Positions 50,171 through 56,272 of a DNA stretch of 64,000 nucleotides are shown here, piece by piece; position 1 is the first letter of the stretch, and the number at the start of each line of letters is the position of its first letter. A program made the position numbers and the translations under genes. Origin of the DNA: Lentisphaeria bacterium (GTDB lineage: Bacteria > Verrucomicrobiota > Lentisphaeria > JABSQK01 > JAWLHB01); NCBI GenBank assembly GCA_041690595.1, contig JAWLHB010000002.1, forward strand, positions 62,001-126,000, in the 5' to 3' direction. The notes under the pieces were generated by a model that saw only the letters and a list, made by a program, of their open reading frames with translations, searched no databases and was not told the DNA's origin.

Positions 50171-51619
50171 TCAGCGCTTGATCTGGAGGCGAGTGGTGCC
50201 CTGCTTGCCGCCGCTGCCCTTGAACGAGTTGATCAGCAGCCAGACCCCGAACCCCAGGATGGGCAGAAGACCGCCGATGGTGGCGGTCAGCATCAGGGTG
50301 CGGCTGGGAAAGAGGGCGATGATGGCCGCGGCGGCGCCTTCGGGCTGGGAGATGGCCATGTAGGCCAGCAGCGCCAGAAGAGCAGCGCAGGCAATCATGA
50401 CGGCGGCGAGTTTCCTGGCAGTCTTCGCACTGAAGAAGCTCAGGCGAGCCAGCCCTTTGGGCTCGATCAGGCGATGGGTGTTACGCAGCATGTGCTGCAA
50501 CTCACCGAAGAACTGCTTGAGTTCGCGGACGCTGGTCATGGGCAGGGCGATATACGCCTCGTCCCCCGCATCGTCGCGATACTTGATGTCGATGGTGAGG
50601 TGCGAGACATCCTGATCGGCCATGAGGATGCTGGGAACAGGAACGATGACAGCTTCCTCTGCCGGCATGAAGTCGCTGGGGTGATAGCCGTCCTTGATGG
50701 CGGTACGGGTTTCCTCGATGTCGCTGGCGTTCAACTTGCAGGCGAAGAAGGAGCCCTGAACGATGCCGAAGACCGTGTGGAGGGAGCTCTCGAGATTGGA
50801 GAAAACAAGCGGGGGGCGTTCGAGGAACTCGGGTGGGATGACCTTGGCCTCGGCATCGCGCCTGAGGCGCAGATCGGGTTTGCCTTCGCGCTTCTTCGGG
50901 TCGATACGCAACGCCTCGGCTTCGGGGCGAAAGCCTTGACTCCAATCGACCTGTTCGGGCTCCTCGACTTCTTCTTCGAGCTTGGGCGCCTTTGGCGGGG
51001 TGGCGGGGACCGGATAGCTATCCGGCGATTTCGGGGGTGCCTTGGGTGCCATGGCCCGGAGCTGGGGCGTGGTCGGCATCTTGGGGATCTCGAACGTTGC
51101 TTCCTGGATGCCTTCCGGCGTTGGCGGCTCAGTGGCGGCCTTGCGTATGGTGAGTTCGCTGGCCGGTCGCAGCTTGTCGGCGGACGTCTCTGGGGCCTTC
51201 GGTTGCATCGCCCGAAGCTTCAACTCCTGGGGTGGCTCGAGGGGCGGACTGGCCTGCTCGGGCTTTTCCGGGGCGTATGGTGGATCGGCGGCGATGGTCT
51301 CATCCATGGCGGACAAGGGCATCTTCGGTTTGATGGAGAGGATCTTCGGCGGCTCGAGAAGCTCGTCGCCTTCCTCCACAACCGTATCGCCCGGCGAATC
51401 CGGGAGCCGCAGGGCTTCGCGGGTCGGTTCGAGAGAGGAATCCGACTGGCGCGGAGAGGATAGCTCGGGCTTCGGCGGGAGGCTCCTCGGGGTCGGAGCC
51501 ACAATGCGCGGGCGAAGCTTCGGCGCAATACCGGGAATACGACTGCCGGAACGCTGAACGCTCGGCTTCTTATCCGAGTCATCCTCAGTCTGGTCATCGC
51601 CATTCTGGCGGGTGCTCAT
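50171..51619 (-). CDS. Hypothetical protein: Pro-rich disordered N-half, globular middle, two C-terminal TM helices
   Basis: P/E/K-rich first approximately 250 aa and two hydrophobic segments near the C-terminus. Confidence 0.7.
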   Translation of the reverse strand: MSTRQNGDDQTEDDSDKKPSVQRSGSRIPGIAPKLRPRIVAPTPRSLPPKPELSSPRQSDSSLEPTREALRLPDSPGDTVVEEGDELLEPPKILSIKPKMPLSAMDETIAADPPYAPEKPEQASPPLEPPQELKLRAMQPKAPETSADKLRPASELTIRKAATEPPTPEGIQEATFEIPKMPTTPQLRAMAPKAPPKSPDSYPVPATPPKAPKLEEEVEEPEQVDWSQGFRPEAEALRIDPKKREGKPDLRLRRDAEAKVIPPEFLERPPLVFSNLESSLHTVFGIVQGSFFACKLNASDIEETRTAIKDGYHPSDFMPAEEAVIVPVPSILMADQDVSHLTIDIKYRDDAGDEAYIALPMTSVRELKQFFGELQHMLRNTHRLIEPKGLARLSFFSAKTARKLAAVMIACAALLALLAYMAISQPEGAAAAIIALFPSRTLMLTATIGGLLPILGFGVWLLINSFKGSGGKQGTTRLQIKR

Positions 51620-51773
51620 GTGCATCGACTCCCTGGTGGCGGTTCTGACCGGCAGGACGCGCTTGCTTTTCTGGGTCTCCCGGCTCTCAGCCGCGAAAGA
51701 TGTACCATACCCGCAAATGGCGACATTTCCAGTTGTGAGAGGCGATCAGGAGGATGCTCGCACAACCACGCGG

Positions 51774-51994
51774 ATGGAACCACGCGGATGGAACCACGGA
51801 GACACGGAGACACGGAGGCGAGGCGAGAGGGTGATACTTCACCTACTTGAGCATCTGATGCTATAAAGATCACCACGAAGAACACGAAGATTGCGAGAAG
51901 TAAATCAAGGTGGTATATGTGATGTTACTAATGACTTACCGTTATTTCTATAGCCTAACAACCCATTCTTCGTGCTCTTTGTGCACTTCGTGGT
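51774..51994. repeat. Short tandem repeat tracts including an inverted CCACGAAG-type pair
   Basis: (AACCACGCGGATGG)x2 and (CACGGAGA)x about 3. ACCACGAAGAACACGAAG at 51872-51889, with an inverted triple copy at 51968-51994 around a 78-bp AT-rich spacer. Confidence 0.75.
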
Positions 51995-52088
51995 TAATCC
52001 GTTCGATTGGGATCCCCTTCTGGATGACCGCATTTTCGGATCTTTCTTCATGAAGTATGCTGGAGGTGGGCGGGCCGTTGGGGCAAGC

Positions 52089-52190
52089 GGGCGAAAGGAG
52101 ATCTGGACGGATCTGACGGATCTGACGGATCTGACGGGCGAATGGGAGCGAGGGTCGTAAGCAACGGGCCTCGCGGGTCGGAGAACCCCT
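52089..52190 (+). repeat. Left copy of an approximately 100-bp direct repeat
   Basis: GGAGATCTGG(ACGGATCTG)x3...ATGGGAG...CGTAxGCAACGG...TCGCGGxTCGGAGAACC, matching 53752-53856. Confidence 0.8.
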
Positions 52191-52247
52191 CATCAATAAG
52201 TCCCGTGGAGTTGAGCTTGGGCGGGGAGGGGGCAATGGCAATGGCGC

Positions 52248-52297
52248 GGAATGTCTGCCCCACTTTCCGAGCAGGCAGACAGGAATGTCTGCACTAC
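52248..52297 (-). repeat. Two REP-like elements of a second family
   Basis: Minus strand reads GTAG-T-GCAGACA-TTCC-TGTCTGC (perfect 7-bp hairpin) and a partial GTGGG-GCAGACATTCC. Confidence 0.65.
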
Positions 52298-52322
52298 GGG
52301 GAAGACTATTTTCCTTGCCCTC

Positions 52323-52350
52323 TTGACTTTTGGGTTATGTGTGATATACT
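52323..52350 (+). promoter_or_regulatory. Near-consensus sigma70 promoter with extended -10
   Basis: TTGACT - 16 bp - TATACT, with TG one base upstream of the -10. Confidence 0.7.
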
Positions 52351-52400
52351 CTGAAGTATCATTCTGGTGGTAATTCACAGGCTCTTGGGAGGGAGTGGTG

Positions 52401-52897
52401 ATGAGTGGGCTCAGCGGGAAGATGTGGCGGTTTGGGAGGGAGTATGTGAAGGACTTCTGTGGGGAGAAGGCGGCACTTCGGGCGGGTTATTCGGAGTCGT
52501 TTGCGAAGGGGCGAGCGACGGAGCTGCTGGGGGATGGTCGCGGTTCGGGGAACCGATGTGCCGGGACCGAGGAATCGACCGAGGTTTTGGGATGGGGCGA
52601 GGCGCGGGAGGCCACTCAGGCGAGTGGCGTGCCTGGGATGGGGTCGCCGCTCGGAGAGCGGCTCAGTCGCGGTTCGGAGAACCCCTCCCACGTTGTCGGG
52701 CCTGTCGAGGCAAGCGCTAATGAAATTGCGCTCACGCGGGGAGATGGCAAGGGTTCTAGTCGCGGTTCGGAGAACCCCTCCCACGTTGTCGGGCCTGTCG
52801 AGGCTAACGCTAATGAAATTGCGCTCACGCGGGGGGATGGCAAGGGTTCTAGTCGCGGTTCGGAGAACCTCTCCCACGTTGTCGGGCCTGTCGAGGC
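52401..52897 (+). CDS. Terminase small subunit-like N-terminal HTH fused to 31-aa repeats (3' end undefined: frame enters the gap; may be a pseudogene)
   Basis: RBS GGAGGG 7 nt before ATG. LSGKMWRFGREYVKDFCGEKAALRAGYSESFAKGRATELL matches the Terminase_2 N-terminal pattern (F..EY..D.....AA.RAGYS...A......LL). Confidence 0.55.
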
Positions 52898-53552
52898 NNN
52901 NNNNNNNNNNNNNNNNNNNNNNNNNNNNNNNNNNNNNNNNNNNNNNNNNNNNNNNNNNNNNNNNNNNNNNNNNNNNNNNNNNNNNNNNNNNNNNNNNCGC
53001 TAATGAAATTGCGCTCACGCGGGGAGATGGCAAGGGTTCCAGTCGCGGTTCGGAGAACCCCTCCCACGTTGTCGGGCCTGTCGAGGCAAGCGCTAATGAA
53101 ATTGCGCTCACGCGGGGAGATGGCAAGGGTTCTAGTCGCGGTTCGGAGAACCCCTCCCACGTTGTCGGGCCTGTCGAGGCTAACGCTAATGAAATTGCGC
53201 TCACGCGGGGGGATGGCAAGGGTTCTAGTCGCGGTTCGGAGAACCTCTCCCACGTTGTCGGGCCTGTCGAGGCAAGCGCTAATGAAATTGCGCTCTCGCT
53301 GGGAGATGGCAAGGGTTCCAGTCGCGGTTCGGAGAACCGCTCCCACGTTGTCGGGCCTTTGGAGGCTAACGCTAATGAAACTGCGCTCACGCGGGGAGAT
53401 GGCAAGGGTTCCAGTCGCGGTTCGGAGGACCCCTCCCACGCTGTCGGGCCTGTCGAGCCTAACGCTAATGAAATTGCGCTCACGCGGGGAGATGGCAAGG
53501 GTTCTAGTCGCGGTTCGGAGAACTCCTCCCACGTTGTCGGGCCTGTCGAGGC
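52665..53552. repeat. 93-bp tandem repeat array of REP-like hairpin units (9 visible cores, interrupted by a gap)
   Basis: Units start at 52665, 52758, 52851, 53041, 53134, 53227, 53320, 53413 and 53506. The core reads on the minus strand GTGGGAG(G/C)GGTTC-TCC-GAACCGCGA. Confidence 0.95.
52898..52997. other. Scaffold gap (100 N)
   Basis: Run of 100 N inside the repeat array. Confidence 1.
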
Positions 53553-53751
53553 GACGCCAAATCGCCGCGCGCAGAACGGCTCCCGCCTTGCCGAAGGGCA
53601 GACCGAGGATTTGACCGAGGTTTTTGGGGGAAGTGAGGCGCAGGAGGCCACTCCGGCGAGTGGCGTGCCCGGGAATGCGACCGACATTTCGACCGAGGAA
53701 TCGACCGAGGTTTTGGGATGGAGCGGCATCGTTGAGGGCAATGGGGATAGA

Positions 53752-53856
53752 GGGCAAAAGGAGATCTGGACGGATCTGACGGATCTTACGGATCTGCGGG
53801 CAAATGGGAGGGGGGGCCGTAGGCAACGGCCCCAGTCGCGGTTCGGAGAACCACCT
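53752..53856 (+). repeat. Right copy of the approximately 100-bp direct repeat
   Basis: GGAGATCTGGACGGATCTGACGGATCTTACGGATCTG...ATGGGAG...CGTAGGCAACGG...TCGCGGTTCGGAGAACC. Confidence 0.8.
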
Positions 53857-53901
53857 GGTTGGGCCTGTCGCGGTGCGGAGAGTGCCTCGCTCAACAGTGA
53901 G

Positions 53902-55008
53902 TCAGGTGCTGGCGAGGATTCTGCCGGAGTCGACGTTGAAGACGATGGCGGGGGAAAGCTCGGCGAGGGCATGATCGCCGGTGGCGACGAGGAAGGTCTG
54001 GTCGGCGCGGCGCAGGTGCTCGTAGAAGGCATGGCGGGCACGGGCATCGAGTTCACCAACGACGTCGTCGACGAGCCAGATGATGGGGAGTTCGCGGGTG
54101 TCGGCGATGAGGAGGTCACCGGCGGCCATCTTGAGGGCGAGGACCGCCAGCCGGCATTGGCCTTCGGAGCCATACAGGTCGAGGGGGTGATCGTCGAGGG
54201 CGAGGCGAATCTCGTCGCGGTGGGGGCCGCGCGTGGTATGCTGGCGGGCGAGATCCTGCTGGCGATGGGCGTTGAGTTCCTCCTGGAAGGCCTGGCGGAG
54301 CGCTTCCGGGGGCGGCTGCTGGAGGGCGAGGCGAATGGAGGGCAGGTACTCCAGCGTCAACCGCTGTTCGGCGGAGAAGAGCTGGGAGCCGACGGTCCGG
54401 AGGCGCTCGGCGAGGTTGGCGAGCAGCGTCGCGCGATGGATCATCAGGCTGGCGCCGCGGTCGATCAGGACCTTGTCATAGGCGCGAATGGCGGCATCGC
54501 TGGGCTGGGGATGGCGGAGAAGGGCATTGCGGGCCTTGAGGGTGTGGGCGTACTCCTGGAGGAGGGGCATGCAGCCGGGGACCAGCTGAGTCGTGAGCAT
54601 GTCGAGAAAGCGACGCCGGTCGCTGCCGGTCCCTTTGACGAGTCCTATATCTTCCGGGACGAAGGTGTTGCAGCAGAAATGGCGAATGAAGTCGCTGGCG
54701 CGGGAGACGAGGGAGCCGTCGACCATCAGGCGTCGCTGCGGTCCATGTTCGACGGCCAGACGGCGCTCGCCGTGATCGGTGGAGAGTTCGCCGCGCAGCC
54801 GGAAGAGGCGGGTCCCCCAGCGGTGCAGGTGGCTCAACCGGGTGGTGCGGAAGGAGCGGAGGAGGGAGAGGAACTGAATGGCCTCCAGGAGGTTGGTCTT
54901 GCCCTGTCCGTTGGCGCCGACCAGCAGGTTGAGTCCGGGCACCAGCTCGAGGTCGAGCTTGTCGTAGTTCCGGAAGTCGCTGAGATGGAGGGCGTGCAGG
55001 TGGGGCAT
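53902..55008 (-). CDS. recF: DNA replication and repair protein RecF
   Basis: FRNY, GANGQGKTNLLEAI, RSFR, RRRFLD, RNALL, GPHRDE, GSEGQCR, LVDDVVGELD. Confidence 0.95.
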   Translation of the reverse strand: MPHLHALHLSDFRNYDKLDLELVPGLNLLVGANGQGKTNLLEAIQFLSLLRSFRTTRLSHLHRWGTRLFRLRGELSTDHGERRLAVEHGPQRRLMVDGSLVSRASDFIRHFCCNTFVPEDIGLVKGTGSDRRRFLDMLTTQLVPGCMPLLQEYAHTLKARNALLRHPQPSDAAIRAYDKVLIDRGASLMIHRATLLANLAERLRTVGSQLFSAEQRLTLEYLPSIRLALQQPPPEALRQAFQEELNAHRQQDLARQHTTRGPHRDEIRLALDDHPLDLYGSEGQCRLAVLALKMAAGDLLIADTRELPIIWLVDDVVGELDARARHAFYEHLRRADQTFLVATGDHALAELSPAIVFNVDSGRILAST

Positions 55009-55109
55009 GGGGAGGCTTTGCGGCTAAAGAGGTTTTGGTATACAAGACCAGCCGGAGCGGAATCTGCAAGTCCCCGGCGCAGGGCGGGCGAAATCCAGTG
55101 GAGAATGCC

Positions 55110-55138
55110 TTGCAATTGCCAGGCGAGGCCTGTAGCCT
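55110..55138 (+). promoter_or_regulatory. Candidate sigma70 promoter
   Basis: TTGCAA - 17 bp - TAGCCT upstream of the M42 gene. GTACAA and TTGTAC half-sites lie just downstream. Confidence 0.45.
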
Positions 55139-55213
55139 TAAGATGTTCGTACAAATAATCGATTTGAATCAGCCATAAGAAATGCCAGTTGTACGTATCA
55201 CTGTGAGGGACGC

Positions 55214-56272
55214 ATGAATGACTCCGAGTTGAGTTTCCTCCGCCAGTTGCTGACCACCCCGGGTCCGGCCGGATTTGAAAGCCAGGTTCAGGCGCTGTGG
55301 TGCGAACGAACCCGCCCCTTTGCCGAAACGGTCCAGCTCGATGTGCATGGCAATGCCTATGCGGCGCTGAACAGCAGCGCGGCCTGCCGCGTCATGCTTG
55401 CCGGCCATGCCGACGAGATCGGCCTCATGGTGATGGCAATCGGTGAGGACGGTCTGCTCAAGGTCGGCGCCATCGGCAGTTTCGATTGCCGCTTCGCGCC
55501 GGGCACCCCCGTCCAGATCATGAGCGCGAACGGCTTGATCGACGGCATCATCGGCAAGCCACTCAGGTCCGAGGATGGGGATGGGGGGGACGAGCGGCCG
55601 CCCCGTATCGGGCAACTCTGGGTGGACATCGGCGCGCTGGATCGCGAGGACGCGGCCCGCCATGTTGCCGCCGGCGATCCCATGGTGATGGCTCCCACCT
55701 GCCGCAGCCTCCTCAACAACCGATGGGCGACGCGCGCGGCGGATGATCGCGTCGGGGTCTTCATGTGTTCGGAGGTTGTGCGCCGACTGGCAGGCAAGCC
55801 GCTGAAGGTCGCGCTCTGGTCGGTCTCCACCGTGCAGGAAGAGGTGGGCTCGCGCGGGGCGCGCAGTGCGGCCTTTCGCCTGGATCCAGCGATCTGCCTG
55901 GTCTTCGACGTGGTTCATGTCAGCGACTATCCCACGGCCGATGTGGCGCGCTTCGGCGATGTGCGTTTGGGTCGCGGTCCGGTCCTGGTACGGGGCGCCA
56001 ACGCCAATGCGAAGCTGAACGGGATCATCGAAGCCGCGGCGAGAGAGGCGGGCATTCCCTACCAGATTTCGCCAGTGCCAACGGTCACCTACACGGATGC
56101 CAACCCGATCCAGATGCATCGGGGCGGAGTCGCGACGGCGCTGATCAAGGTGCCGGTGCGCTACATGCATTCGGCGACGGAACTCTTTTCGCTCGACGAT
56201 CTCGAACATGCCACCGCCCTGGCCGCCGCCACTGTCGAGCGGCTGGACGGGGAAGAGTCTTTCATTCCTTGA
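55214..56272 (+). CDS. M42 family metallo-aminopeptidase
   Basis: PGPAGFE, AGHADEIG, WVDIGA, ADDRVG, VQEEVGSRGA, TDA, PVRYMHS. Confidence 0.92.
   Translation: MNDSELSFLRQLLTTPGPAGFESQVQALWCERTRPFAETVQLDVHGNAYAALNSSAACRVMLAGHADEIGLMVMAIGEDGLLKVGAIGSFDCRFAPGTPVQIMSANGLIDGIIGKPLRSEDGDGGDERPPRIGQLWVDIGALDREDAARHVAAGDPMVMAPTCRSLLNNRWATRAADDRVGVFMCSEVVRRLAGKPLKVALWSVSTVQEEVGSRGARSAAFRLDPAICLVFDVVHVSDYPTADVARFGDVRLGRGPVLVRGANANAKLNGIIEAAAREAGIPYQISPVPTVTYTDANPIQMHRGGVATALIKVPVRYMHSATELFSLDDLEHATALAAATVERLDGEESFIP

Follow-up and report, generated by a model that had tools for sequence, protein, structure and literature searches.

The small terminase (TerS) gene at 52401 in the window (the whole 64-kb stretch of DNA that was analysed, part of contig C2 of genome G000) belongs to a family of about 48 promoter-headed cassettes, referred to here as islands, and we give an even chance to the reading that these cassettes are pac-like packaging starts of a phage-derived, GTA-like system split over at least four loci, with the window copy as a truncated member. 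This reading is drawn from an operator-like motif that the islands have in common with intact terL, capsid, portal and scaffold genes, from selection on the full-length terS copies, and from the spacing and orientation bias of the islands. In the proposed mechanism, a CI-like repressor would keep all of the promoters off, and induction would lead to the head, terL and replication modules being expressed together with the islands. Full-length, HTH-bearing TerS from seven islands would supply the DNA recognition that is missing from the terL-linked TerS, and its binding to promoter and repeat regions would start a directional headful series along the chromosome; host DNA would enter capsids much as it does in lateral transduction, though starting at many sites. 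The window copy would act in cis through its promoter, first 47 codons and repeats, most likely contributing as DNA, and its HTH-plus-repeat protein probably arises as a side effect of keeping the transcript under translation.

Table 1. Features of the window copy and its flanks (positions within the window).
Feature	Position	Strand	Remark
Mosaic of several dispersed REP-like repeat families	51764..52292	+	Upstream flank
A/T-rich tract 5′ of the −35	52305..52313	+	Putatively UP-like; weak conservation by column information over 45 sites
−35 TTGACT, 16-nt spacer, TATACT with TG (extended −10 TGATATACT)	52323..52350	+	Sigma-70-type promoter by sequence match
Putative operator, imperfect palindrome T(A/G)ACY-N4-RGTTA	52324..52337	.	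Over the −35; also before phage modules
RBS	52388..52393	+	From sequence; ATG at 52401
SF6/SPP1-type small terminase, first 47 codons	52401..52541	+	Three-helix DNA-binding domain only; PF03592
Degenerate REP core at deletion junction	52538..52553	+	Same junction in the C39, C46 and C5 copies
Direct repeats, first cluster	52552..52584	+	Family-specific core ACCGA[G/T]G, three times; in the promoter's orientation; candidate pac boxes
93-bp tandem array, read as a 31-aa repeat	52665..53552	+	Each unit has a single REP core and a single small hairpin
Direct repeats, second cluster	53602..53710	+	Two 12-bp doublets (four copies) on either side of a second REP family
Last REP core	53836..53851	+	3′ end of the island
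recF, host gene facing the island	53902..55008	-	Island frame runs on in register antisense

The near-consensus promoter claimed by the original prediction was borne out, with 10 of 12 consensus positions matched and a TG before the −10, and sites this good were found twice in 51600-55250 compared with 0.5 ± 0.7 times in 50 shuffles. It is of the type common to the island family and resembles the promoter of a head operon on contig C4. The ribosome-binding site and ATG start were found where they had been predicted, and the expected TerS-type N-terminus was recovered by an HMM search with PF03592, in which residues 8-43 matched above the cut-off (E 1.2e-6, 29.6 bits, cut-off 26.1), spanning only profile positions 5-40 of 141. 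A match to phrog_51 (E 6e-7) agrees with this assignment, as do the best three PDB sequence matches, all of which are SF6 small terminase chains, with weak scores (E 0.06-0.2). The TerS part of the gene stops directly after helix 3 of a modelled full-length paralogue, the oligomerisation helices and the C-terminal strand region being deleted. As had also been stated, no large terminase was found in the window; the single match to PF03237 in the genome lies outside it, and PF04466 has no match genome-wide.

The view of this gene as a lone one, or as a one-off domesticated chimera, was not supported by a search of the genome. Querying the 8.1-Mb genome by tblastn with the first 50 residues yielded 16 solo terS paralogues, all with a similar promoter, ribosome-binding site and ATG, and terL lies on the same contig as the window copy, 52 kb away. 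Seven of the paralogues are full length, covering PF03592 from profile positions 1-3 to 128-132, and nine are cut back to the HTH with little or nothing more. Within 6 kb of the solo genes, neither terL nor any other recognisable phage gene was seen (0 of 16; neighbouring genes were called by a purpose-built dicodon model and judged by eye). A promoter matrix identified 47 sites above 20 bits in the genome and none above 18 bits in a locally shuffled genome, and these 47 comprise 15 terS copies, 31 islands without terS that are reduced to the promoter and direct repeats, and the promoter of the head operon; a divergent copy on C12 and a degenerate copy on C3 are included in the total of about 48 islands. 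Direct-repeat clusters lie just 3′ of the island promoter, in the same orientation, in 41 of the 47 cases, and five of the other six are 800 bases or less from a contig end. The 12-mer GACCGAGGTTTT occurs 195 times in the genome, 159 times forward and never in reverse within islands; the tail's REP core, with 97 genome occurrences, is found inside islands 24 times forward and 0 times in reverse.

The modelled full-length paralogue (pLDDT 82; helices 6-18, 21-27 and 35-44) is best matched by the SF6 small terminase (Foldseek 3zqq, E 3e-4), and superposes on the DNA-binding domain 4zc3 with a TM score of 0.89 on the target. TerL paired with the C-terminal half of solo TerS scored 0.27 against a mark of 0.32. 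No close homologue of the full-length TerS was found outside the genome among 3151 near-length candidates (three matches, all its own). A TerS profile search gave 2808 matches, the top six of which agree in length and score with copies from the genome itself, the one after these having E 9e-16, and a scan of metagenome contigs gave one distant locus. Among 60 relatives, PF03592 had one match in seven genomes and more than one in none. Several of the profile-search matches contain two to three matched stretches, and on a metagenome contig (L153:1615-2649) a solo gene among host genes apparently consists of two fused TerS units.

The islands probably spread and swap parts by recombination between repeat-rich intergenic regions. 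The copy on C5 clusters with that on C29 in the head tree, yet it has the C2/C39/C46 junction; upstream REP-like mosaics similar to that of the window copy precede most other terS copies; and an alignment of the 16 upstream flanks contained no common boundary, transposase or island-specific terminal repeat. Two further islands differ in composition: at C27:105300-105830 (minus strand) an island that has lost the promoter and terS head shares its junction and tail with the window copy, and on C8 a group II intron-type reverse transcriptase gene (L013:8807-10126) lies between the terS head and the repeat cluster. Upstream of the window copy, positions 51829-52073 hold a dispersed A+T-rich element with inverted repeats at 51872-51880 and 51986-51994, of which about ten similar copies are present in the genome.

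As predicted, the TerS similarity of the window copy ends at a degenerate REP core, which sits at the deletion junction, and the head is followed by an in-frame repeat array that is open on both sides of a 100-N assembly gap (52898-52997), with 2.5 copies at 97% in the 5′ part (52665-52897) and six copies at 93% in the 3′ part (52998-53552). If the array units are contiguous across the gap, its true size would be 3 + 93k bases and the open reading frame would extend over at least 886 codons; in four sediment DNA runs from one study, which provided short contigs only, the gap was unspanned and no empty site was seen. The repeat frame 3′ of the gap does run, as had been noted, without a stop through antisense recF to 55156-55158, but because an open in-register antisense frame is present in 417 of 1378 genes of recF's length, this run-on is ordinary. 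The synonymous differences between units that had been pointed out carry no signal, with four of 14 single-base variants in the array being synonymous and ten non-synonymous (26% synonymous expected, P 0.52). The 93-bp unit is in any case free of stops in two of its three reading frames, no selection on the repeat peptide was found in the array variants of the window copy, and the amino acid sequence of the tail looks neutral at the protein level.

Across the family, the reading frame is retained. The tails of the 14 gap-free terS islands contain 20 in-frame stops versus 142 and 96 in the other frames, and the terS open reading frame covers 89% of the island compared with 39% in frame-scrambled controls (maximum of 300 scrambles 52%; 14 gap-free copies), which upholds the description of the tail as REP sequence with a frame kept open. 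Repeat spacing is a multiple of three for 95 of 103 intervals in terS islands versus 129 of 235 in promoter-only islands, and the latter change frame freely. In the promoter-only islands, open-frame coverage is 0.86 versus 0.80 in scrambles (28 gap-free of 31), a difference inseparable from composition, and stop triplets occur at 0.36 of expectation in the sense direction and 1.0 antisense, a count that is inflated by repeated modules. What is kept would thus appear to be translation across the island and not the peptide.

Selection on the heads differs between full-length and truncated members. The full-length terS copies are under purifying selection, with dN/dS of 0.09-0.52 in 15 of 15 pairs among six copies (the pairs are not independent), and pN/pS over the HTH is 0.11 among full-length copies and 0.55 among truncated ones. 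For the head of the window copy, dN/dS against its three nearest paralogues is 0.38-0.53 at few sites (Fisher P 0.32 for the nearest), and constraint is weak. The original alternative of a terS relic colonised by REPs describes the protein of this copy well enough, but it does not extend to the family, given the promoter, the spacing and the full-length members under selection.

The islands are evenly spaced on the chromosome, with one pair within 40 kb versus 9.5 expected (P 8e-4, counting orphan tails at contig ends) and similar results at 20, 60 and 80 kb, whereas 49 control REP mosaics gave 13 pairs within 40 kb versus 8.7 expected. The next gene is co-oriented with the island in 35 of 38 cases, against a background of about 0.58, with nine more islands at contig ends; the window copy, facing recF, belongs to the three that depart from this pattern. 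By eye, the genes 3′ of the islands mostly appear to keep their own promoters. According to a skew proxy, 22 islands lie on the leading strand, six on the lagging strand and 19 are unclear, and genes are evenly split.

Within the island promoter (45 sites), the columns of TTGACTTTTGAGTTAT carry close to 2 bits and the immediately adjacent ones 0.1-0.2 bits, and this sharp drop leads us to predict a protein-binding palindrome over the −35. The same operator-like motif precedes repressor/terS/terL, head, replication and tail-like modules on four contigs, the phage modules having been identified by PHROGs and Pfam. Module sites were first found by an island-only matrix or a fixed pattern; a second matrix was built partly from module sites, and their top ranks there are non-independent. 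On C2, a CI-like repressor gene (HTH and S24 domain) is divergent from a small open reading frame, terS and terL. The TerS encoded here has 109 aa and no HTH, matching PF03592 only at profile positions 52-129, and the adjoining terL, the sole PF03237 gene in the genome, keeps 106 of 107 family-conserved positions (81 sequences, 80 homologues). The repressor gene (L016:9362-10222) encodes two separate HTH matches, at residues 17-58 and 86-134, before the S24 domain.

The head operon on C4 consists of 12 genes, including scaffold, major capsid (PF20036, E 2e-72) and portal genes together with weak holin and neck matches, and its island-like promoter contains a palindromic site. In an atlas search, a protein of this operon matched viral clusters of unknown function with low recognition. 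A class 3 lipase gene in the operon (L021:8755-9522) adjoins the holin-like gene and may serve lysis. The replication module, on C20, encodes a DnaC-like loader and a DnaD-like initiator, the latter with 33-bp repeats. Part of the initiator occurs a second time at C3:12570-13122 (L026; 87% identity over 518 bases), again with an operator-like site and 33-bp repeats, and this is possibly a second phage-type origin. The three-gene module on C54 is probably a tail module, being tail-like by eye and by one weak PHROG match, without a clear family match; an atlas search with a C54 protein gave no usable match. Since the modules yielded neither a full tape-measure gene nor an endolysin, several of their open reading frames being without assignment, the particle may be incomplete.

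Every phage module has host genes on its flanks and a host-like GC content and codon score, and none of the eight tyrosine-integrase matches in the genome lies on a module contig. An intact temperate prophage was rejected as an explanation, as the modules are spread over four contigs within host genes and no integrase match occurs there. Regulation by SOS/LexA was likewise set aside, the upstream regions of recA and lexA being absent among the motif matches, as was an iteron role for the island repeats, for the initiator's 33-bp repeats differ in sequence and the island repeat motif is absent from the three modules tested. Domestication usually shows as conservation in kin. A search of 350 other genomes from the class turned up the capsid family in none, and terL relatives were found in two of 300, both sets being without a same-family genome. 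A separate lambda-type prophage in one piece lies at about 60000-98200 on C5 (L150, L151), and its genes include a gpA terminase, a lambda portal, a protease-capsid fusion, a tape measure and a serine recombinase. It carries neither the operator motif nor the island repeat, and could lend tail parts to the split system.

A second case was found in an unrelated Reyranellales genome (G352), which has 18 PF03592 matches and a promoter motif that differs from the island motif, with 23 copies versus 0 in the control. This motif precedes solo terS genes as well as terS-terL, head-tail connector, tail, endolysin-like and internal-virion genes on different contigs, and 11 of the 13 open reading frames chosen for scanning have a PHROG match. 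G352 thus has the same layout with its own promoter, and six or more PF03592 copies are present in seven of 61 genomes of the Reyranellales family. We put forward more tentatively, and at somewhat less than an even chance, the wider proposal of a pac-directed GTA: a domesticated, split, co-repressed phage whose packaging would be aimed by dozens of evenly spaced, oriented promoter-terS-repeat cassettes, with parallel lateral-transduction series over the whole chromosome upon induction, which would have arisen at least twice from unrelated phages (G000 and Reyranellales) and whose genomic signature would be multi-copy solo terS with a common promoter.

The SPP1 pac region is described as spanning promoters and the start of terS and containing direct repeats (PMC4737164), and terS/pac put into the Salmonella chromosome is reported to increase transfer of downstream markers (PMC11260489). 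In the GTA accounts cited, small terminases lack an HTH, genes are often at several loci and no pac sites are known (PMC6854486, PMC11841831), and DsGTA is described as giving seven packaging peaks at regular intervals, with no associated motif (PMC5786225). Taken together, these facts would by analogy favour packaging starts. Isolated SF6/SPP1 HTH domains are described as binding DNA weakly and without clear sequence preference, with pac boxes not specifically recognised (PMC4737164), so the island repeats need not be TerS sites.

As in the GTAs described in PMC11841831 (RcGTA, CcGTA and DsGTA), packaging and head genes here lie on distant loci, no integrase is present on the gene contigs, and the short terL-linked TerS is without an N-terminal HTH. 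In gene content, intact packaging and head genes at several loci form an incomplete phage set, which agrees with a GTA. That account has no identified pac sites and no HTH-bearing TerS for GTAs, in contrast to the 16 extra HTH-bearing terS, about 48 motif-defined islands and CI-like repressor with a common operator-like site found here, which would argue against the GTA trait of packaging without site preference or a DNA-binding TerS. The nearest architecture with a replication module, in the part of the literature covered, is BaGTA of Bartonella (bioRxiv 10.1101/2024.11.20.624540), described as having separate replication and capsid/packaging modules under joint control; there, one region is amplified by run-off replication to bias transfer and an antiterminator coordinates, whereas here there are many dispersed cassettes and a repressor-type palindrome.

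The islands are like SPP1/SF6 G1P (PF03592) and its pac region in fold and in combining promoter, terS start and direct repeats as one unit, but they are multi-copy, have no terL 3′ and carry most direct repeats downstream in the tail, the window copy retaining the HTH only. P22 lateral transduction and chromosomal pac-like sites (PMC11260489) resemble the proposed islands in that a chromosomal terS/pac starts one-way headful packaging. In the P22 case, as described there, the site either belongs to an intact prophage or is a short sequence resembling pac on which an outside phage acts, unlike the multiplied whole promoter-terS cassettes and resident packaging genes here. As in REP/REPIN and RAYT (Y1_Tnp) systems, a degenerate Y1_Tnp gene on C11 is accompanied by inverted pairs of the tail's REP core; unlike in REP/REPIN arrays, the island cores have one orientation and are read in frame, as accretions that do not define the island. 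The system would be a variant of the GTA/lateral-transduction kind, and the full texts searched (mostly open-access) held nothing on multi-copy solo terS or on split prophages with many packaging starts.

Among the observations that run against the islands being packaging starts are that the 31 promoter-only islands lack the terS start that SPP1 pac includes, that packaging leaves co-orientation with the next gene unexplained, and that the head of the window copy is only weakly constrained. The main rival reading, which is rather unlikely, has the same biochemistry with a different beneficiary: a GTA-like agent would package randomly through the HTH-less TerS, and the islands would be selfish drive elements with a borrowed operator, whose HTH-bearing TerS favours their own loci and whose non-autonomous offspring (HTH-only and promoter-only) would be related to them as MITEs are to a transposon. 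Such parasitism fits a decay series from full-length (7) through HTH-only (9) to promoter-only copies (31), plus the promoter-less C27 copy, and it fits the shuffling of parts seen in the C5 copy and the patchy distribution in the Reyranellales family; co-orientation with a next gene that retains its own promoter would amount to harm avoidance. However, the even spacing is more easily explained by selection on chromosome-wide coverage, and the flank alignment offers no island-specific transposase or terminal repeat.

The remaining two readings are less likely than either of these. It is improbable that the islands are functionless debris, in which a prophage was scattered by rearrangement and a terS/promoter segment multiplied passively through gene conversion between REP arrays, with no packaging. 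The neutral tail of the window copy, the two open frames of its repeat unit, the relaxed truncated heads, the partial second initiator copy and the incomplete tail and lysis genes could all be read in this way, but debris does not account for intact terL, capsid, portal and scaffold genes with host-like codons, the low pN/pS of the full-length HTH, position-specific promoter conservation, the scarcity of in-frame stops in 14 tails, the even spacing or the recurrence in G352. Least probable is a defence or suicide role, with islands as decoy pac sites and dominant-negative TerS against an invading pac phage, or as targets at which induced TerL would cleave the chromosome in many places, killing the infected cell. 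Although the HTH-only copies are intact through helix 3, a second, lambda-type prophage resides on C5 and extra chromosomal pac sites lower P1 productivity (as cited in PMC11260489), an operator common to islands and capsid, scaffold and portal genes is superfluous for a pure decoy, the resident prophage has a gpA-type terminase with neither operator nor repeat, and the isolated HTH is described as binding DNA weakly. The packaging decoy entertained in the original prediction is weakened in the same way by the apparent co-regulation with capsid and terL genes.

If the islands are packaging starts, they would be named, countable and directional, and the profile of packaged DNA could be predicted in advance. 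Recognition of GTAs from sequence and the choice of the host DNA that they package are listed among the open questions of the field (PMC11841831). The packaging-start reading would also link GTAs with lateral transduction, with the chromosome, or a selfish element in it, steering its own transfer. The signature to search for combines numerous solo PF03592 genes with a single promoter motif that lies in front of them and of dispersed phage modules alike, and its copy-number part already singles out the seven Reyranellales genomes in a family unrelated to that of G000.
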